Shown here one piece after another: positions 1,790-64,000 of a DNA stretch of 64,000 bases. A program made the position numbers and the translations under genes. Below the pieces are notes generated by a model that searched no databases, was not told the DNA's origin, and worked only from the letters and a program-made list of their open reading frames with translations. How positions within the stretch are numbered: the stretch's first letter is position 1; each line of letters begins with the position of its first letter. The stretch is from NCBI GenBank assembly GCA_022800625.1, contig JAAWQR010000005.1:19333-83332 (forward strand), in the 5' to 3' direction. Source of the stretch: Clostridiales bacterium (GTDB lineage Bacteria > Bacillota > Clostridia > Oscillospirales > CAG-272).

Positions 1790-4147
1790 GTGCGGCTGAC
1801 AATGAAAGGGAATTGTATTCAGATGGTAATGTGCTCCAGATGCCATAAAAGAATGGCTGTAGTTTTTTTAACTAAAATAGAAGGCGGAGAATCGACGCAG
1901 GAGGGACTTTGCATAAAATGTGCAAAAGAGCTGGGAATCAAGCCTATAAACGATATACTTGAACAGACGGGACTTGATGAAGACGCAATAGATAAGCTCG
2001 GCTCTGAAATGGAGGAATTTTTAGAAAGCGCCGAGGAAGATCCCGAAATAGCCTCTCTCATTGAGGGAGAGGCGGCGGGAGAGGACAGCCGCGCTCCTAT
2101 CCTTGATTTTAAAAAGCTCTTAAACGAAGGACTTTTTCAGAAAGGCAATCCGAATTTGCCTGATAATAAAAAAGGTTCAAAGTCCGGGAGAGCCAAAAAG
2201 GATGAGATGAAAAAGAAAAAAGAAAGCAAGTACCTTAAAACATATACGCAAAATCTTACAGAGCGTGCAAAAAACGGCGAAATCGATGCAGTTATAGGGC
2301 GTGACCGCGAGCTTGAACGTGTTATACAGATTCTTTGCAGGCGTCAAAAGAACAATCCGTGCCTTATCGGTGAGCCGGGTGTCGGAAAAACGGCGATTGC
2401 AGAAGCTTTAGCTTCGCGCATAGCTTCGGGAAATGTCCCGTATAAGCTGCGCGGATGCGATATATGTCTTGTTGATCTTACGGCTTTGGTCGCGGGAACG
2501 CAGTTCAGAGGGCAGTTTGAGTCCCGTGTGCTCGGTCTTTTGAATGAAGTCCGTGAGCGCGGAAATGTGATCCTTGTAATCGACGAAGTACACAACATCG
2601 TGGGAGCAGGAGACGCGGAGGGCAGCATGAACGCCGCAAATATCCTGAAGCCTGCGCTGTCACGCGGCGAGATTCAGGTGATAGGCGCGACAACACTGAC
2701 GGAATACAGAAAGTATATTGAAAAAGATTCTGCTCTTGAAAGAAGATTCCAGCCTGTGACAGTCAACGAGCCGTCAGTTGCAGATACGGTTGATATACTT
2801 CGAGGAATTAAAGGATATTATGAAAACTACCACGGTGTTAAAATCCCCTCTTCAGTGGCAGAAAGTGCGGCAAGGCTAAGCGAGAGATACATCACCGACA
2901 GATATTTACCCGACAAGGCAATAGACCTGATTGACGAAGCGGCATCGCACGTGTCGGTCCACTCGCCGTGTATTAACGAGCGCCATGAGCTTGCCGACAG
3001 GCTGAAAGAGATATGCACTGAGCGCGAAGCACTTGAAAGCGAAACGGCGGAAGAAGAAAATTCAGAGGAAAGATACCACAAAATAGCGGAGCTTCGCTCG
3101 GAGGAGCTGAGGGCGGAAAACAGACTTCATGAACTTGACGCAGAGTGCGGAAATGTTGTTCTGTCGGAATCCGATCTTGCCGATGTCATTGAGATCTGGA
3201 CGGGTATTCCCGCTTCAAGTATATCCGAAGACGATTACAGAAAACTTGAAACTCTCGAAGAGCGAATATCAAAGCGGATTGTCGGTCAGAATGAAGCCGT
3301 GTCGGCTGTAGCGAGAGCTGTAAGACGCGGCAGAGCAGGGATCTCATATAAGAGAAAACCCGTGTCATTCATATTTGCGGGACCTACGGGAGTCGGAAAA
3401 ACCGAGCTTGTGAAAGTACTTTCCGAGGATCTGTTTTCATCTCCCGAAACGCTGATAAGACTTGACATGAGCGAATTTATGGATAAATTTTCTGTTTCAA
3501 GGATTATCGGAGCGCCTCCGGGATATGTCGGATACGACGACGCAGGTCAGCTTACCGAAAAGATCAGAAGAAAGCCATACTCTGTAGTACTTTTTGACGA
3601 GATAGAAAAAGCGCATCCCGATGTTATGAATATCCTGCTTCAGATACTTGATGACGGACGGATAACCGATGCTCACGGGAAAAAGGTAAGCTTTGAAAAT
3701 ACGGTTATAGTAATGACGACAAATGCGGGAAGCGGAAGTTCGGCGTCTCCCGTCGGTTTTGCAAAAACCGCAGATGAAGCGGCAAAAGACCGCACTATGA
3801 AGGCTCTTTCTGAATTCCTCAGACCGGAATTTATCAACAGAGTTGACGAGATAATTACATTTAAAGCGCTTACCCGCGACGATTTTGTTTCAATCGCAGA
3901 AATAATGACAGGCGAGCTTGCAGCTATTCTTTCCGAAAAGGGAATAAAGCTGAATGTCGGTGATGAAGTCAACAGACATATAGCTGAGAAGTCTTATTCG
4001 GAAAAGTACGGCGCAAGAAATATGAGAAGATTTATACAGACTGAGCTTGAAGATAAGATCGCAGAGGCAATTATATCGGCAAGGGGAACGCTCGGCGCAA
4101 TATCGGTTGATATGAAAGACGGGGAACTTGTCATAAATTCCATATAA
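1790..4147 (+). CDS. Clp/Hsp100 AAA+ ATPase, ClpE/ClpC-like, with N-terminal zinc ribbon
   Basis: Two AAA+ modules: Walker A GEPGVGKT and GPTGVGKT, Walker B ILVIDEVH and VVLFDEIEKAH. It has a short coiled-coil linker and a VGF ClpP-docking tripeptide. The N-terminus carries CSRC...CIKC instead of Clp_N repeats. The start is ambiguous (1790/1802/1823/1829). Confidence 0.85.
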   Translation: MRLTMKGNCIQMVMCSRCHKRMAVVFLTKIEGGESTQEGLCIKCAKELGIKPINDILEQTGLDEDAIDKLGSEMEEFLESAEEDPEIASLIEGEAAGEDSRAPILDFKKLLNEGLFQKGNPNLPDNKKGSKSGRAKKDEMKKKKESKYLKTYTQNLTERAKNGEIDAVIGRDRELERVIQILCRRQKNNPCLIGEPGVGKTAIAEALASRIASGNVPYKLRGCDICLVDLTALVAGTQFRGQFESRVLGLLNEVRERGNVILVIDEVHNIVGAGDAEGSMNAANILKPALSRGEIQVIGATTLTEYRKYIEKDSALERRFQPVTVNEPSVADTVDILRGIKGYYENYHGVKIPSSVAESAARLSERYITDRYLPDKAIDLIDEAASHVSVHSPCINERHELADRLKEICTEREALESETAEEENSEERYHKIAELRSEELRAENRLHELDAECGNVVLSESDLADVIEIWTGIPASSISEDDYRKLETLEERISKRIVGQNEAVSAVARAVRRGRAGISYKRKPVSFIFAGPTGVGKTELVKVLSEDLFSSPETLIRLDMSEFMDKFSVSRIIGAPPGYVGYDDAGQLTEKIRRKPYSVVLFDEIEKAHPDVMNILLQILDDGRITDAHGKKVSFENTVIVMTTNAGSGSSASPVGFAKTADEAAKDRTMKALSEFLRPEFINRVDEIITFKALTRDDFVSIAEIMTGELAAILSEKGIKLNVGDEVNRHIAEKSYSEKYGARNMRRFIQTELEDKIAEAIISARGTLGAISVDMKDGELVINSI

Positions 4148-47205: not shown

Positions 47206-47250
47206 TGCGGTGAAAAGCAGTATTGCAGGTATTTAAAGCGGAGGATGTAT

Positions 47251-47757
47251 ATGAATAACGAAGAACTTATAATAAAAATGCTCGGCGATCTTGCCGAGTC
47301 ACAGGCGGAAACAAGTAAAAACATCGCCGACATAAAAGATCGGGTTATAAATCTTGAAAACGGTGTAACCAATATTGAAAATCGGGTTACAAGTCTTGAA
47401 AACGGTGTGACCAATATTGAAAGTCGGGTCACAAATCTTGAAAACGGTGTGACCAATATTGAAAATCGGGTTATAAATCTTGAAACGAATATGTCGGAGA
47501 TTAACGAGTGCACGGTCAGACTTGAAACAAATGTATCCGACATAAAAACTCGGGTTACAAGCCTAGAAGTGAATCAGGAAACGGTCATAATTCCGCAGAT
47601 AAAGCTTCTCGCAGAAGGTCACGGTACTATAATAGACCATATCAAACGGCTTGATACATATCCTATCCAAGAAATGCAGGATGATATAGTACTTTTGAAA
47701 TCAGCGGTGAAGGCACTGCTCTCTGAGGTTGCAGAACTTAAAGCTGCAAAGCAATAG
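47251..47757 (+). CDS. Heptad-repeat coiled-coil protein, function unknown
   Basis: About 11 consecutive heptads N-[LI]-E-N-x-V-T. The ATG at 47251 lies 6 nt after GGAGG. Confidence 0.6.
   Translation: MNNEELIIKMLGDLAESQAETSKNIADIKDRVINLENGVTNIENRVTSLENGVTNIESRVTNLENGVTNIENRVINLETNMSEINECTVRLETNVSDIKTRVTSLEVNQETVIIPQIKLLAEGHGTIIDHIKRLDTYPIQEMQDDIVLLKSAVKALLSEVAELKAAKQ
47338..47490 (+). repeat. Intragenic tandem repeat, 42-bp unit (two 21-bp subunits), about 3.3 copies
   Basis: Units at 47350-47391, 47392-47433 and 47434-47475 differ at only a few positions. Each encodes NLENGVTNIENRVT. Confidence 0.85.
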
Positions 47758-57935: not shown

Positions 57936-59327
57936 TTACAGCTCGCAGTTGCCTACTGTTCGCGGGAAGGGAAGTACGTCACGAATGTTTGAAACTCCTG
58001 TCAGATACATTACGCATCTTTCAAATCCTAGACCGAATCCTGCATGTCTTGCAGAGCCGTATTTCCTCAGATCAAGATAAAATCCGTATGATTCTTCATC
58101 GAGTCCGAGTTCAGCCATGCGTCCTTTCAGCTTTTCAAGGTCATCTTCACGCTGTGAGCCACCGATGATCTCGCCGATTCCGGGCACAAGACAGTCCATA
58201 GCGGCAACTGTCTTTTCGTCCTCGTTCAGCTTCATATAGAAAGCTTTGATTTCCTTAGGATAGTCAGTTACAAATACGGGACGCTTGAAAATTTCCTCTG
58301 TAAGATATCTTTCATGCTCTGTCTGAAGATCACAGCCCCAATATACCTTATAGTCAAATTTATCGTTGTTCTCTTCAAGCAGACGTACAGCTTCAGTGTA
58401 TGTTACGCGCCCAAAATCAGAGCTTGCAACATGTTCAAGGCGTTCGAGTAGTCCTTTATCAACAAAGCTGTTAAAGAATTTCATTTCTTCAGGCGCATTT
58501 GCCATAACATAGCGGATAATGAACTTGATCATATCTTCTGCAAGATCCATGTCGTCGTTAAGGTCAGCAAAAGCGATCTCAGGCTCGATCATCCAAAATT
58601 CTGCCGCATGACGCGTGGTGTTTGAATTTTCCGCACGGAATGTCGGTCCGAATGTGTAGATATTCTTGAACGCCATAGCATAGGTTTCACCGTTAAGCTG
58701 TCCCGATACTGTGAGATTTGCGCTTTTTCCAAAGAAATCTCCGCTGAAATCGACTTTTCCGTCATCTGTTTTCGGAACATTTTCCATGTCAAGCGTCGTT
58801 ACGCGGAACATCTCCCCTGCACCTTCGCAGTCGCTTCCCGTAATGATCGGCGTGTGAACGTATACGAAATTTCTCTCTTGGAAGAATTTATGGATAGCGT
58901 AAGCTGCAAGAGAGCGTACACGGAATACTGCCTGGAACAGATTTGTGCGCGGACGAAGGTGAGATATAGTTCTGAGGTATTCAGGACTGTGGCGCTTCTT
59001 TTGAAGCGGATAATCGGGTGTTGACGCACCTTCAAGCACAACGCTGTCAGCATGGATTTCAAACGGCTGCTTTGCGTCAGGGGTAAGAACGATACGACCT
59101 ACCACAACTATTGCCGAGCCTACGTTATATTTTGAGATTTCAGAAAAATTATCAAGGTTATTATCATATACTATCTGAACGGGTTCAAAAAATGTACCAT
59201 CCGAAAGTGTAATAAATCCAAATGTTTTTGAGTCTCTGATGCTTCTGACCCAGCCGCCGACTTTTACACTGTCTTTAGATACCGAATCCATATCGCGGTA
59301 CAGGGTTCTTACTGAAGTTAGCTCCAT
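57936..59327 (-). CDS. asnS: Asparagine--tRNA ligase
   Basis: Class IIb synthetase of 463 aa with [21 protein letters not shown] and GFGLGFER motifs. AGGAGG SD. Confidence 0.92.
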
Positions 59328-59697: not shown

Positions 59698-60603
59698 ATG
59701 ATAATTTTGAAAAATAACAGGCTTTTATGCTCGACGGGAGCAATGGTCGGACGGGAAAACGGATATAATTATAAAAGAGCGCTGTCGGTTATTGCAAAGC
59801 TTAAAGAAAAAGAACTTTTATACGGCGGCGAGCTTATGATGCTTAAATTTTATTATGATAAGCGCGAAAGTATAGTATCGGAGGTTCTCAGATCTGATGT
59901 GCCGTTTCCTCTGATTCACTGTGAAAAGGGAATCGGAACGGATCTTTCACATGCCGCTTATCTTGACTCTGCAGGTGAGTATAAGAGTGCAGAAGCTCTG
60001 CTTTTCGATACAATTGAGCATTTTCGCTTGAATTGCCGTTTCGGAGAAGATATAGGCGCTCGATATATGGTACTTCATCTTTGGGGCGGTCTCGATTCGG
60101 ACAGCTATGTTCAATATAATATATCAAAGCTCGGCTTGCTTACGGATATTGCGTCGGGGCACGGTATTGATTTGCTTCTTGAAAACGTTCCGTGTACAAC
60201 GCGCGATCCTTTGTCAAATTGGCTGAGCATAATAGAAAGATATCCCAAGTCCGAGTTGATATTCGATACAAGATTTGCAACGGTGCATGAACAGGCGGAA
60301 GCGACGCTTTCGTGCGTCGGCATAATTGACAGGCTTCGTCATATTCATGTCAGCGACTGTGCATATACATTGTTTGAGAATGCATATATGCAAAACGGTA
60401 TGCGTGATTTTTCGTGCTTGCGTCCGATACTTCATCCGTATGAAGGAATAGTAAAGCTTGATGATATAGCCGCGTCTCTCGCAAAGCTTGGTTATACGGG
60501 AACAGTTACGCTGGAATCACCCGTAATGGAGGGAGAAGAACTTAATACCGCGCGTCTCGAATCATCATTCAGAAAATTATCCGATATTTTTCATGCGGAT
60601 TGA
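59698..60603 (+). CDS. Sugar phosphate isomerase/epimerase (xylose isomerase-like TIM barrel) family protein
   Basis: Weak motif-level match (LHLWGG...LLLENVP...IHVSD...TLE). The start codon is uncertain because the SD spacing is very short. Confidence 0.45.
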   Translation: MIILKNNRLLCSTGAMVGRENGYNYKRALSVIAKLKEKELLYGGELMMLKFYYDKRESIVSEVLRSDVPFPLIHCEKGIGTDLSHAAYLDSAGEYKSAEALLFDTIEHFRLNCRFGEDIGARYMVLHLWGGLDSDSYVQYNISKLGLLTDIASGHGIDLLLENVPCTTRDPLSNWLSIIERYPKSELIFDTRFATVHEQAEATLSCVGIIDRLRHIHVSDCAYTLFENAYMQNGMRDFSCLRPILHPYEGIVKLDDIAASLAKLGYTGTVTLESPVMEGEELNTARLESSFRKLSDIFHAD

Positions 60604-60613
60604 CCTTTGAACA

Positions 60614-60642
60614 TTGTAATTTTCTCACACCTGTGATAAAAT
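60614..60642 (+). promoter_or_regulatory. Sigma-A type promoter upstream of the MutS-like gene
   Basis: TTGTAA, 17 nt, TAAAAT with TG extension (TGATAAAAT). Confidence 0.55.
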
Positions 60643-60684
60643 AATAAGTAATATTTTCGGTGCGTGAAGATGCGGCAGCCTCTT

Positions 60685-60760
60685 GAAACTGCGTTTTAAC
60701 GAAACGAGCGTTTCAATGAAACGAGCGTTTCAACAAAATGAGCATTTCAATGAAATGATC
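60685..60760 (+). repeat. Tandem array (about 4.5 copies) of a 17-bp unit, each an internal palindrome GAAACG-AG-CGTTTC
   Basis: Units at 60685, 60701, 60718, 60735 and 60752. The two central units are near-identical (one mismatch at the last base). The array is enclosed by long-range complementary arms, 60662-60677 and 60761-60785. Confidence 0.8.
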
Positions 60761-60819
60761 TTGCCGCAAGTCGGAGCTTCACGCTTCGTTCAGAAAATGG
60801 TTCTGTAAAACAAATATAT

Positions 60820-62454
60820 ATGTCAGAAAACAGTATAATAACAGATACGGCGGATATAAGCCTTTTGTATCCCACCGACGCGGCGAGAGAACATTCGCTT
60901 AACCGCAGATGTCGGGATGCCTTATCGGAATATACGGCAGAACAGCTTGAGCTTTACCGTCTGATAGATGTGAAAAATTCACCCGTCGGAGAATTCTTTA
61001 CCGATGACCGTGATGTGCTGCTATACCGTCAGGAGACATTTCGCGATATACTTGCCTTTCCTGAACTGTCGGAGCTTTTGAAGGGGCTTATTCCTTTGCT
61101 TGAGGATATAGTTGAGCTACGGCGCATGAGCCATGAAAACTCTGCATCGGCGGAGTCATATCTTTACAGCATAACAGAAGTGGAGCTATATACCTCAATT
61201 ATATCAATGATGAAAGAGACTCTGATTCCGCTGAAGGATAAAGTATCGGGCAGAGCGTTCGGAAATCTTGCGAAGGCGGTAGACATTCTGACCGAAAGCG
61301 AGTATTATAAAAATATAAACCGTCAGCTTGAAGATCTGACCTCTCGCGTCAGGGAAGTAAAGAGCGTTACTATCGGTGTGAATCTCGATTCAAGGCTGAA
61401 AGCCGAATCGGCAGGTGTCTTGTCAGTTAATAACGATAAATTCAAGTCCGGACAGCTCATTGACCGCGTTCTGAGATTGGATTTTAAGCAAGGAGACATG
61501 ACCTGCATAGCTCCGCTCGTTCCGTTCAGACGTGACCAGTCGGAAAATCAGCAGCTTGCGCTGACATACGCGCTCAGCTCCGCGCTCAGCGAGGTATATA
61601 AATCGTCTATACGTTCGTGGAAAAAAGTTATACGCTCGTACGTGCTTGAAAATACGGATTTTCTCATAAAGCTGCTTCCCGAGATAGAATTTGTGACAAA
61701 GGCTGCAGAAACTCTTACAGATCTTGTTTCTCACGGCTGTCCTCTTTGCTATCCCGAGATTGTAGCTCCGAATGAACTTAAATTTTCCGCGCGCGGACTT
61801 TGCAATCCTGTAGTATCAATGAAGCTTGAGGGAGAAGTCGTGCCGAATGATTTCACATTTGATGAAAACGGCATGATTTATATTCTTACAGGTCCTAACA
61901 GAGGCGGAAAATCGGTCATAACATGCGCTGTCGGTATTGCTTTTGCGATGGCAGGACTCGGACTTCCGGTTTGCGCCGAATCGTGTAAGGTAAGTCCTGC
62001 GGACGCAATATTTACACATTTTCCGCAGGGAAGCGAGGATACGATAGACAAGGGCAGACTCGGAGAGGAATGTGCGCGTCTTGAAGGCGTGCTTGATCTT
62101 GTGACCTCTCACAGTCTTGTGCTGCTCGACGAGTCGTTCTCATCAACGGGAGCATATGAGGGTTCTGTCATAGCGGGAGAGGTAATATGCGGATTTGCCG
62201 CAGTAGGATGCCGTGCGATCTTTTCAACACATCTTCATGAGCTTGCCTCACGAACCGATGAGCTGAACGCAAGATGTGCTGAGGCGGGCGGTGTCAGGAT
62301 AGATAATCTTGTAGCTGAGGTTGACGGATCTAAGCGCAGCTTTAAAATCGTAAGGAAATCTCCCGACGGAAAGAGCTATGCGGCAGACATAGCGGGAAAA
62401 TACGGACTTTCATTTGATAAAATAAGAGAAAAAATAAAAGGCGGAAGAGCCTGA
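60820..62454 (+). CDS. MutS family ATPase paralog (domain V only; no mismatch-binding or Smr domain recognised)
   Basis: Walker A LTGPNRGGKSV, Walker B LVLLDESFSSTG and STHLHEL motif in the C-terminal third. The N-terminal ~330 aa are unassigned. No obvious SD. Confidence 0.75.
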   Translation: MSENSIITDTADISLLYPTDAAREHSLNRRCRDALSEYTAEQLELYRLIDVKNSPVGEFFTDDRDVLLYRQETFRDILAFPELSELLKGLIPLLEDIVELRRMSHENSASAESYLYSITEVELYTSIISMMKETLIPLKDKVSGRAFGNLAKAVDILTESEYYKNINRQLEDLTSRVREVKSVTIGVNLDSRLKAESAGVLSVNNDKFKSGQLIDRVLRLDFKQGDMTCIAPLVPFRRDQSENQQLALTYALSSALSEVYKSSIRSWKKVIRSYVLENTDFLIKLLPEIEFVTKAAETLTDLVSHGCPLCYPEIVAPNELKFSARGLCNPVVSMKLEGEVVPNDFTFDENGMIYILTGPNRGGKSVITCAVGIAFAMAGLGLPVCAESCKVSPADAIFTHFPQGSEDTIDKGRLGEECARLEGVLDLVTSHSLVLLDESFSSTGAYEGSVIAGEVICGFAAVGCRAIFSTHLHELASRTDELNARCAEAGGVRIDNLVAEVDGSKRSFKIVRKSPDGKSYAADIAGKYGLSFDKIREKIKGGRA

Positions 62455-62475: not shown

Positions 62476-62952
62476 ATGAATGAAGTTCTGAAAATGCTTG
62501 AAAACGACGGCAGACTGAGTCATGAGTCTATAGCAAGAATGCTTGACAAGGAAACGGGCGATATAAAAAAGATGGTAGAGGATTATGAGCGCGACGGCGT
62601 AATTCTCGGATATAAGGCGATAATCGACTGGGACAAAACGGACAGGGAATATGTGTCCGCGCTGATTGAGCTGAAGATCACGCCGCATATCGGTCACGGC
62701 TATGACCGCGTTGCCGAAAAAATATACGGTTATCCCGAGGTTGAGAGCCTGTATTTGATGTCGGGAAGCTTTGACCTTGCAGTTTTGATCGAGGGCAAAA
62801 CAATGCGCGAGGTTGCGTTCTTTGTTGCGGAAAAATTGGCGGCTCTTGAAGATGTTATTTCAACATCTACGCATTTTGTACTGCGTAAATATAAGGATAA
62901 GGGCATTGTTTACGGTGCTGTTCCGGTTGACGAGCGAGGAAATATTATCTGA
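62476..62952 (+). CDS. Lrp/AsnC family transcriptional regulator
   Basis: N-terminal HTH (LENDGRLSHESIARMLD) and a C-terminal RAM/AsnC_trans_reg-like domain. Confidence 0.85.
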   Translation: MNEVLKMLENDGRLSHESIARMLDKETGDIKKMVEDYERDGVILGYKAIIDWDKTDREYVSALIELKITPHIGHGYDRVAEKIYGYPEVESLYLMSGSFDLAVLIEGKTMREVAFFVAEKLAALEDVISTSTHFVLRKYKDKGIVYGAVPVDERGNII

Positions 62953-64000
62953 TGATCGACTACAGTAAAATTTTAACTCCTACGATACAGGAAATGAAGC
63001 CTTCGGGAATTCGCAAGTTTTTTGATCTTTTAGAGACTCATAAAAACGCGATATCGCTTACGATAGGCGAGCCTGATTTTACAACTCCGTGGCATATTCG
63101 CGAAGCGGGAATCCACAGTCTTGAAAAGGGACGAACGTACTATACTTCCAACAGCGGAACGCTTGAGCTTCGCGAAGCTATATCGGAATATTTGTCGCGT
63201 AAGTTCAATCTTTCGTATTGTCCTAAAAATGAGATTGTGGTAACCGTCGGAGGAAGCGAAGCGATTGACGCGGCGATGAGAGCCGTAGTTGCTCCCGGTG
63301 ACGAGGTGATTATCCCACAGCCTTCGTTCGTATGCTACGGACCTCTTTGCACGCTTTGCGGCGGCGTGCCTGTATATATAAATACAAAGGAAGAGAATAA
63401 ATTTAAGCTTACTGCCGATGAGCTGAGATCGGCGATAACCCCGAGGACAAAACTGCTCGTGCTTCCGTATCCGAACAATCCGACGGGAGCTGTTATGACC
63501 AGAGCGGAACTTGAACAGCTTGCCGAAGTCCTCAGAGAAACAAACATCATGGTGCTTTCCGATGAAATATACGGAGAGCTTACATACGGCATGAGGCATA
63601 CGTCTATTGCGGAGCTTGACGGTATGCGTGAGAGAACGATCCTCGCCAGCGGCTTTTCCAAAGCATACGCCATGACGGGCTGGAGACTCGGCTACCTCTG
63701 CGCGCCGCGTGAGCTTGCAGTGCAGATGCTGAAGATACATCAGTATGCGATAATGTGCGCGCCGACGACTTCTCAGTTTGCGGCAATTGAGGCAATGCGC
63801 AACGGAGACTCTGACATTGATATGATGCGCGAAGAATATAACAGGCGCAGAAGATTTCTTGTAAGCGGTCTTCGCAAGATCGGTATATCCTGCTTTGAGC
63901 CGGAGGGCGCGTTCTACGCATATCCGAACATTTCGTCATTCGGAATGACAAGCGAGGAATTCTGCAAGCGGCTTCTTGACGAATACAATGTGGCGATCGT
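62952..64000 (+). CDS. Class I/II pyridoxal-phosphate aminotransferase, 3'-truncated by window edge
   Basis: Not in the ORF track because it has no stop. ATG 62952 overlaps the Lrp stop (ATGA). My translation gives MIDYSKILTP...KPSGIRKFFDL...NNPTG...SGFSKAYAMTGWRLGY (PLP-Lys motif). Confidence 0.85.
   Translation, partial: MIDYSKILTPTIQEMKPSGIRKFFDLLETHKNAISLTIGEPDFTTPWHIREAGIHSLEKGRTYYTSNSGTLELREAISEYLSRKFNLSYCPKNEIVVTVGGSEAIDAAMRAVVAPGDEVIIPQPSFVCYGPLCTLCGGVPVYINTKEENKFKLTADELRSAITPRTKLLVLPYPNNPTGAVMTRAELEQLAEVLRETNIMVLSDEIYGELTYGMRHTSIAELDGMRERTILASGFSKAYAMTGWRLGYLCAPRELAVQMLKIHQYAIMCAPTTSQFAAIEAMRNGDSDIDMMREEYNRRRRFLVSGLRKIGISCFEPEGAFYAYPNISSFGMTSEEFCKRLLDEYNVAI

Follow-up and report, generated by a model that had tools for sequence, protein, structure and literature searches.

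The 216-bp intergenic region between a xylose-isomerase-like TIM-barrel gene and a MutS-like gene, in the 64-kb window (the whole stretch of 64,000 nucleotides of Clostridiales DNA analyzed here), contains a tandem array of palindromic 17-nt units within the predicted 5′ leader of the MutS-like gene. The array has the appearance of a row of operators, and the question raised by this locus was whether it is a conserved regulatory element. The analyses indicated that the array is probably not such an element but an expansion of tandem repeats that folds on itself and is tolerated in a variable loop. Judged from sequence, it is the conserved leader around the repeat, and not the repeat itself, that looks functional.

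The units of the array are located as follows.

60685-60700: unit 1, GAAACTGCGTTTTAAC
60701-60717: unit 2, GAAACGAGCGTTTCAAT
60718-60734: unit 3, GAAACGAGCGTTTCAAC
60735-60751: unit 4, AAAATGAGCATTTCAAT
60752-60759: unit 5, partial, GAAATGAT

An initial annotation of this DNA had described about 4.5 head-to-tail copies of a 17-nt unit, and its unit sequences were found at 60685-60759 exactly as written. Each unit has the layout GAAACG-AG-CGTTTC followed by a 3-nt linker, and the half-site GAAACG flips its orientation every 8-9 nt along the array. The resulting palindromes are twofold, consisting of the unit core GAAACGnnCGTTTC, which is indeed the internal palindrome first described for each unit, and the junctions CGTTTC-AAT-GAAACG. 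Tandem Repeats Finder reported a period of 17 at 60691-60755 (3.8 copies, 83% matches, score 88), with an alternative period of 34 at 60684-60755 (score 102), and just one higher-scoring array elsewhere in the 64 kb, within a coding region. An exact 16-mer is repeated at the 17-nt offset, which by chance would be expected about 1e-5 times per 64 kb (our own arithmetic, no tool). Five assemblies other than the window, drawn from five sequencing runs, contain the array, which is therefore not an assembly artefact.

The array was situated within a leader whose parts were assigned as listed below.

60614-60642, + strand: promoter, with the −35 element TTGTAA at 60614-19, a 17-nt spacer and TAAAAT at 60637-42 (consensus scan)
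60634-42, + strand: extended −10 element TGATAAAAT, in which TG precedes the −10
60658-60669, + strand: 5′ arm of helix P1, CGG-T-GCGTGAAG, pairing with 60777-60788 (folds, covariation, pairing probability 0.97)
60671-60678, + strand: 5′ arm of helix P2, TGCGGCAG, with the conserved core TGCGGC at 60671-76
60679-60759, + strand: lineage-specific insert of 81 nt in the P2 apical loop, which carries the array
60760-60768, + strand: 3′ arm of P2, CTTGCCGCA, with the conserved core GCCGCA at 60763-68 (folds, covariation)
60769-60776, + strand: 3′ side of the asymmetric internal loop leading from P2 to P1, AGTCGGAG, of which the first three bases, AGT, are conserved
60777-60788, + strand: 3′ arm of P1, CTTCACGC-T-TCG (folds, covariation)
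60791-60805, + strand: hairpin P3, CAGAA-AATGG-TTCTG
60806-60819, + strand: AU-rich spacer lacking a Shine-Dalgarno (SD) sequence, followed by the ATG of the MutS-like gene at 60820-60822

The consensus scan confirmed the TTGTAA-17-TAAAAT promoter proposed earlier at 60614-60642. From this promoter, transcription of the region would be expected to start near 60649. The array had also been described as bracketed by complementary arms. All four arms exist, GCGTGAAG (60662-69) with CTTCACGC forming part of P1 and TGCGGCAG with CTTGCCGCA forming P2, although two of them had been placed one base too high (CTTCACGC lies at 60777-84, not 60778-85, and TGCGGCAG at 60671-78, not 60672-79).

Loci were fetched from relatives whose MutS-like protein is 64-77% identical to that of the window. 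This gave eight distinct leader-bearing loci at 68-77% identity (L004, L005, L006, L127, L128, L130, L131 and L134). The leader was present in every relative with an identity of at least 68%, and L135 (64%) was without it. The array was absent upstream of the MutS-like gene in all eight loci. The promoter pattern TTGTA[AT]-17-TGnTA[AT]AAT was found at the equivalent position in each of the eight, and the distance from the −35 element to the ATG was 114-130 nt, compared with 209 nt in the species of the window. When folded singly, each ortholog gave P1, an internal loop on the 3′ side, P2, a separate P3 and an AU-rich stretch without SD, and the window sequence from which 60679-60760 had been removed gave the identical P1/P2/P3 fold. 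The internal loop measured about 6-11 nt in all nine leaders. The apical loop of P2 was 3-10 nt long in the eight orthologs and differed between them in length and sequence; in the window it is 86 nt long, 81 of which are the insert. Examples of P2 are TGCGG-CTTT-CCGCAAGT in L128, TTGCGGC-TGC-GCCGCAAGT in L127 and TGCGGCAG-[array]-CTTGCCGCAAGT in the window. The base of the P2 stem, UGC...GCA-AGU, was conserved in seven of the eight orthologs, the exception being L134, which has GCCC/GGGC followed by AAT. The coordinates of representative leaders are as follows.

60649-60822: leader in the window
2418-2503: leader in L004
1419-1503: leader in L127
1503-1590: leader in L128
1420-1503: leader in L131

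Comparison of the orthologs supported the helices as RNA. A covariance model built from four orthologous leaders re-found its own four seeds alone among 78 loci (default filters) and missed the leader of the window, whose 81-nt insert was assumed to be out of its reach. Since this model was without power, direct alignment and counts of pairs were used instead. MAFFT misaligned L130, L131 or L006 in several attempts; the usable alignments were A4 (the window minus the array, with five orthologs) and A7, and manual alignment was used for P3 and for the full table of nine sequences. In A4 the sequence GCAAGT was invariant, 85.9% of the P1 and P2 cells were paired, compared with 34-46% after the 3′ partners were slid by 1-3 columns, and two-sided changes were seen at 9 of the 17 P1 and P2 pairs. 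The observed P1 and P2 values were reached by none of 500 shuffles. Across nine leaders and three helices, the hand-made table contained 172 Watson-Crick, 7 G-U, 0 A-C and 8 other cells, and the ratio of G-U to A-C argues for an RNA of the + strand and against a DNA cruciform or a minus-strand RNA. The enclosing helices of the initial annotation were thus confirmed as RNA helices of the + strand transcript. P3 was 4-7 bp long and entirely Watson-Crick, with a distinct sequence in each of the nine leaders. The distance from its end to the ATG was 12-14 nt, and in seven leaders it was exactly 14 nt.

The start codon downstream of this leader had been noted to lack an SD sequence, and indeed none that is purine-rich was present within the 16 nt before the ATG at 60820. 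The SD was absent from all nine leader-bearing loci (scored partly by eye), whereas an SD-like sequence was present in 70 of 76 more distant orthologs (51-64% identity), none of which had the leader motif (0 of 76). SD-like sequences were common among the genes of the window, in a crude survey too rough to support more than this.

The effect of the array on the predicted structure was small. The pairing probabilities of P1, P2 and P3 were 0.97, 0.95 and 0.61 for the window allele, 0.97, 0.94 and 0.61 for the allele of strain locus L001, and 0.97, 0.93 and 0.61 with the array deleted; in the allele of L136, P1 was 0.97 and P2 0.94. Shuffled inserts of the same composition gave a mean P2 of 0.61, with P2 at or above 0.9 in 32% and below 0.5 in 35% of cases. 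The insert alone folded with −22.8 kcal/mol (z = −3.45). Folding of the array itself depended on the allele. The window allele was predicted to form one long hairpin stacked on P2, making with P1 and P2 a mostly paired stem of about 55 bp, and the L001 and L136 alleles formed several small hairpins. The closed multi-hairpin domain that had been proposed for the RNA is thus the minimum free energy structure of two alleles and not that of the window allele. Taken together, these predictions suggest that the array would be structurally neutral for P1, P2 and P3.

Variation within the species separated the array from the sequence around it. Three alleles of the array were found; below, each is represented by the pentanucleotides immediately after its CGTTT cores.

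Window, L002 and L137: TAACG, CAATG, CAACA, CAATG
L001 and L003: CAATT, TAACA, CAACA, CAATG
L136: CAATG, TAACA, CAACA, CAACA, CAATG, with one extra 17-nt unit

Copy number therefore differs between strains, L136 having one unit more than the window and L001, and the copies are head-to-tail and in register, as in a variable-number tandem repeat (VNTR). Apart from the extra unit, the differences between alleles were confined to two linkers. The promoter was identical in all three alleles, and the 135 intergenic bases outside the array were identical in the window and L001 and differed in L136 at one base, in the P3 loop. With a synonymous divergence of 0.036 between the MutS-like genes of the window and L001, 4.9 substitutions would be expected in these 135 bases and 0 were observed (Poisson probability about 0.007), as against 6 observed and 2.9 expected in the 81-nt insert. 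For the window and L136 (synonymous divergence 0.060), the part outside the array had 1 substitution against 8.1 expected (about 0.003; both probabilities are our own arithmetic) and the array had 5 substitutions and the 17-nt indel against 4.8 expected. The array thus changes at or above the synonymous rate and the other intergenic sequence is nearly invariant, which indicates purifying selection on the promoter and on the P1/P2/P3 leader but not on the array as a whole. Its substitutions were clustered in the two linkers far beyond what independent hits would give, and this points to a few multi-base events. These may have been template switching, conversion among the units, or unit loss and gain starting from a longer array. 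An inversion between alleles was rejected by hand, since the reverse complement of 60697-60718 does not yield the L001 sequence.

Absent from the eight orthologous loci, variable in both copy number and sequence, and changing at a rate no lower than the synonymous one, the array does not behave as the regulatory element it had been taken for. The repeat enclosed by the helices is the least conserved part of the leader, and the emphasis of the initial annotation on it was therefore misplaced.

These observations would be accounted for by the following model. The host of the array would be an older structured 5′ leader of an operon of MutS-like, AsnC-type and aminotransferase genes in a small clade of Clostridia, laid out as promoter, P1, asymmetric internal loop, P2, P3, an AU-rich spacer of 12-14 nt and an ATG without SD. 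In this species only, palindromic 17-nt units would have expanded within the apical loop of P2 as a strain-variable VNTR or minisatellite. Because the units are self-complementary and neighbors are complementary to one another, the transcribed array would be self-folding, giving two to three small hairpins or one long extension stacked coaxially on P2, with P1, P2 and P3 left intact. As it evolves, units would be gained and lost and linker substitutions would come in clusters, probably through slippage, conversion or quasi-palindrome template switching, and the array may have no function of its own. Regulation would be exerted by the conserved parts of the leader, most likely on translation initiation at the SD-less start, and would be mediated by a binding partner of P3 or of the internal loop between P1 and P2.

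The model has precedents in several known systems. Like bacterial intergenic VNTRs, the array consists of head-to-tail units (10-100 bp in that class) that differ slightly from one another and vary in number and order between strains; unlike the usual VNTR, it has a unit that is itself palindromic, and its location coincides precisely with the apical loop of a conserved RNA helix, which it thus lengthens in a self-contained manner. Structured RNAs such as rRNA, RNase P and some riboswitches accommodate insertions, in the form of expansion segments or variable loops, at the ends of their conserved helices. The P2 insert resembles these in that a covarying helix has a variable terminal loop (3-10 nt), in which one lineage carries a large self-folding insert while the core fold stays intact. 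It differs in that the host is a short mRNA leader and the insert is made of tandem repeats that are polymorphic in one species.

Several points weigh against this interpretation. The sample comprised three alleles and nine leader sequences, and the inferred neutrality of the array draws on folding predictions and on rates. All substitutions in the array fall in linkers and the AAACGnnCGTTT cores are unchanged; the dyad of unit 3 was kept through a double change (C..G to T..A). The untouched cores and the kept dyad could reflect selection on the palindromes and not conversion between units. The alleles fall into two length classes exactly one unit apart, and two alleles of equal length have unlike unit orders, which could hint at a constraint on length. 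Finally, two families of protein-binding sites share their sequence form with the unit.

It is unlikely that the array is instead a functional RNA extension, a strain-variable module that tunes the output of the MutS-like operon by its copy number. Correia elements, which are transcribed palindromic repeats, are reported targets of RNase III (PMC3049150). The array might likewise provide a duplex cut by RNase III, repeated hairpins for an RNA-binding protein, or a spacer that alters the presentation of P1 and P2. Its position in a leader under purifying selection, its strain-dependent copy number, the stem of about 55 bp predicted for the window allele, and the preservation of dyad symmetry by paired changes in unit 3 and linker 2 (C..G to T..A) are consistent with such a role. 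However, related species carry the leader without the array, its predicted fold differs by allele, and it accumulates substitutions at least as fast as synonymous sites. Template switching in quasi-palindromes yields paired changes without selection, and the preserved dyads can come from this process.

Action at the level of DNA, in which the alternating GAAACG half-sites would bind a dimeric regulator that, downstream of the promoter, would serve as a roadblock or anchor a loop, appears improbable. The candidate regulator would be either the operon's own AsnC/Lrp-type protein or a repressor of the TetR type from another locus. With respect to the former, Lrp/AsnC-type proteins recognize sites of the form abcdeWWWedcba, as described by Yokoyama et al. 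(PMC2715240). Two junction palindromes of the array, GTTTC-AAT-GAAAC at 60710-22 and ATTTC-AAT-GAAAT at 60744-56, match this 13-bp form perfectly with an AAT center and lie 34 bp apart (about 3.2 turns), and the AsnC-type regulator gene is a co-transcribed member of the operon. The form is unspecific, however, as any hairpin with a 3-nt A/T loop fits it, for example P2 of L006 and P3 of L130. No such site (with up to 2 mismatches) was found in or near the leaders of the eight orthologous loci, although their AsnC proteins are 77-87% identical and share an invariant KExGDIK in the N-terminal region, a stretch taken to be the DNA-reading helix. The L001 allele has lost one of the two perfect sites, and the outer base of the half-site differs among alleles. 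The array is located at about +37 to +111 of the predicted transcript, inside the transcribed leader and not over the promoter, and its 17-bp period corresponds to 1.6 helical turns, placing neighboring sites on nearly opposite faces of the helix. The phased operator array of the initial annotation thus has difficulties with helical phase, with position within the transcript, and with the site-free orthologs that share the KExGDIK sequence.

The case for a TetR-type repressor came from a genome scan. A two-unit core scan (AAACGnnCGTTT-N5-AAACGnnCGTTT) of 185,579 species genomes gave 37 matches, none of which was a tandem array or this locus; about a dozen of them look like paired operators, and the others include terminator hairpins and a pair of AAACGGCCGTTT from Chloroflexota. 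In the array itself, two AAACGnnCGTTT palindromes at a 17-bp period are located at 60702-13 and 60719-30. Pairs with the same 12-bp core and 17-bp period lie directly upstream of TetR-family genes in the unrelated genomes of L020 (TetR_N/TetR_C_30) and L030 (TetR_N/CecR_C), although the resemblance to TetR operators is partly imposed by the search pattern. Those operators are two promoter copies beside TetR and efflux genes, whereas the array consists of 4.5-5.5 degenerate copies in a 5′ untranslated region whose neighbors are AP_endonuc_2, MutS_V and AsnC genes and not a TetR-family gene. Indeed, no TetR homolog was detected among all open reading frames (ORFs) of the 64-kb window by phmmer with the TetR proteins of L020 and L030 (E up to 1).

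The paired sites are of interest in their own right. Pairs of the 12-bp AAACGnnCGTTT palindrome separated by a 5-nt A/T-rich linker recur in unrelated phyla (L020 3487-3515 and L030 5434-5462; also L007, L011, L016, L017, L019, L021, L024, L025, L032 and L041). In L020 and L030, the two checked cases with a clear neighbor, the TetR-family genes (TetR_C_30 and CecR_C types) adjoin efflux genes, and in L017 the paired site stands at the start of an ABC-2 transporter gene. Such pairs look like the double operator of a single TetR subfamily, with a wide distribution.

An origin from a mobile element was also considered, in which the insert would be a copy or remnant of a miniature inverted-repeat transposable element, a repetitive extragenic palindromic element or a BOX-type palindromic element that landed in the P2 loop and then varied. 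The abrupt insertion of 81 nt relative to all orthologs and the strong self-folding of the insert would fit this origin, as would its modular tandem core of variable copy number, which recalls the boxB of pneumococcal BOX, an element composed of boxA, n copies of boxB, and boxC (PMC3049150). Like BOX, the insert is a hairpin-forming intergenic sequence with a multi-copy internal module that spares the rest of the fold, and it may be co-transcribed with adjacent genes (PMC3049150). Unlike BOX, it was found at a single locus and has no flanking A and C modules, its flanking arms being the ancestral helices of the leader. No second copy was present in the 64-kb window, and no related tandem array was found in viral contigs or in the 185,579 species genomes, whose matches did not include the genome of this species with its other contigs, a search of phage, plasmid and viral contig collections having given nothing over chance for the array. 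Neither terminal inverted repeats distinct from the units nor a target-site duplication was seen. A mobile origin has a low probability.

Very improbable is a combination in which the P1-P2-P3 leader is an undescribed regulatory RNA and the array a heritable rheostat of the SD-less MutS-like/AsnC/aminotransferase operon. Were this so, gain or loss of a 17-nt unit would alter protein binding, RNase III processing or the geometry of a switch, and expression of the MutS-family gene would vary by strain, as at a contingency locus built from a minisatellite.

Other candidates were readily rejected. The array is not a clustered regularly interspaced short palindromic repeat (CRISPR) array, as its units adjoin directly without unique spacers. 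A coded peptide (a 41-amino-acid ORF starting with TTG at 60683-60808) was discounted because no SD precedes it, a period of 17 nt is not divisible by 3 and the array is missing from the orthologs. A terminator or attenuator would need a G+C-rich hairpin followed by a U run, and an A-rich sequence, not a U run, follows P1 and P3 in all nine leaders; nor does a terminator-like U run follow the array. No terminator-like site was found within 60300-61000, and none was predicted for the upstream gene. A minus-strand element folds slightly better (z = −3.8 versus −2.3), but both neighboring genes are on the + strand and the G-U to A-C count is 7:0.

The initial annotation had not recognized the element, and the collections searched agree with it. 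Rfam (release 15) gave nothing for the array or the leader. At the gathering threshold the window contained one match elsewhere, a thiamine pyrophosphate (TPP) riboswitch (RF00059, 16807-16911, + strand, 58 bits, over the gathering score); region 60400-61000 gave chance-level matches only with E up to 10, and the eight orthologous loci, which lack the insert, gave tRNAs and noise outside the leader with E up to 1.

The genes around the leader were assigned as follows.

rpoC: first gene of the listed local order, before the aminoacyl-tRNA synthetase gene
57936-59327, minus strand: class II aminoacyl-tRNA synthetase gene
59698-60603, + strand: xylose-isomerase-like TIM-barrel protein gene (AP_endonuc_2, Pfam)
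60820-62454, + strand: MutS-like gene with a product of 544 amino acids (Pfam PF00488, MutS_V)
62476-62952, + strand: Lrp/AsnC-family regulator gene of the same operon (Pfam, NCBIfam)
from 62952, + strand: aminotransferase gene, the operon member after the AsnC-type gene, which leaves the window at its end

The MutS-like protein has MutS domain V only (PF00488), and NCBIfam assigned it to no specific family. The adjacent Lrp-family regulator of the initial annotation was confirmed by Pfam and NCBIfam as the AsnC-type gene at 62476-62952. Its exact protein occurred on 16 contigs, the majority of which did not extend as far as the leader. The order MutS-like, AsnC, aminotransferase was seen in L001 as well; the AsnC-type gene followed the MutS-like gene in all eight orthologous loci, and the TIM-barrel gene was upstream in most of them but not all. 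In L127 an additional gene of 170 amino acids (3148-3660, weak AAA_18 match) lies between the MutS-like and AsnC genes.

Upstream of the TIM-barrel gene, a tRNA gene was found in five orthologous loci, always on the minus strand, at the position that the aminoacyl-tRNA synthetase gene occupies in the window.

L004 1265-1336, minus strand: tRNA gene
L005 1326-1397, minus strand: tRNA gene
L006 1263-1334, minus strand: tRNA gene
L127 261-332, minus strand: tRNA gene
L128 346-417, minus strand: tRNA gene

Conservation thus extends to the operon and its leader but not to the gene order upstream of them.

The window and L001 also differ by 10 substitutions within 33 bp at 63677-63709, a second cluster of strain differences. 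It falls within the aminotransferase gene (+ strand) and may represent a short tract of recombination. A minus-strand ORF of 236 amino acids at 63030-63740 overlaps the same gene and is probably spurious. Elsewhere in the window, a 21/42-bp tandem repeat (7 copies of 21 bp, 47339-47485) lies within the ORF at 47245-47757 (+ strand). It is coding, giving a 7-residue repeat (VTNIENR / VTSLENG ...) in a protein of 170 amino acids that is probably a coiled coil.

On the explanation that accounts best for these data, a striking operator-like pattern resolves into a polymorphic set of repeats that expanded recently in an insertion-tolerant loop. The array would illustrate how a self-complementary repeat can grow within a constrained RNA and leave it undisturbed, where shuffled inserts of equal size would often break P2. 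A by-product of the analysis is a leader that is not in Rfam, defined by covarying helices, the UGC...GCA-AGU junction, a P3 mostly 14 nt from the start codon and the loss of the SD, and found in one clade. This conserved SD-less leader appears more promising than the array, and is a candidate for translational control of a MutS-family paralog.

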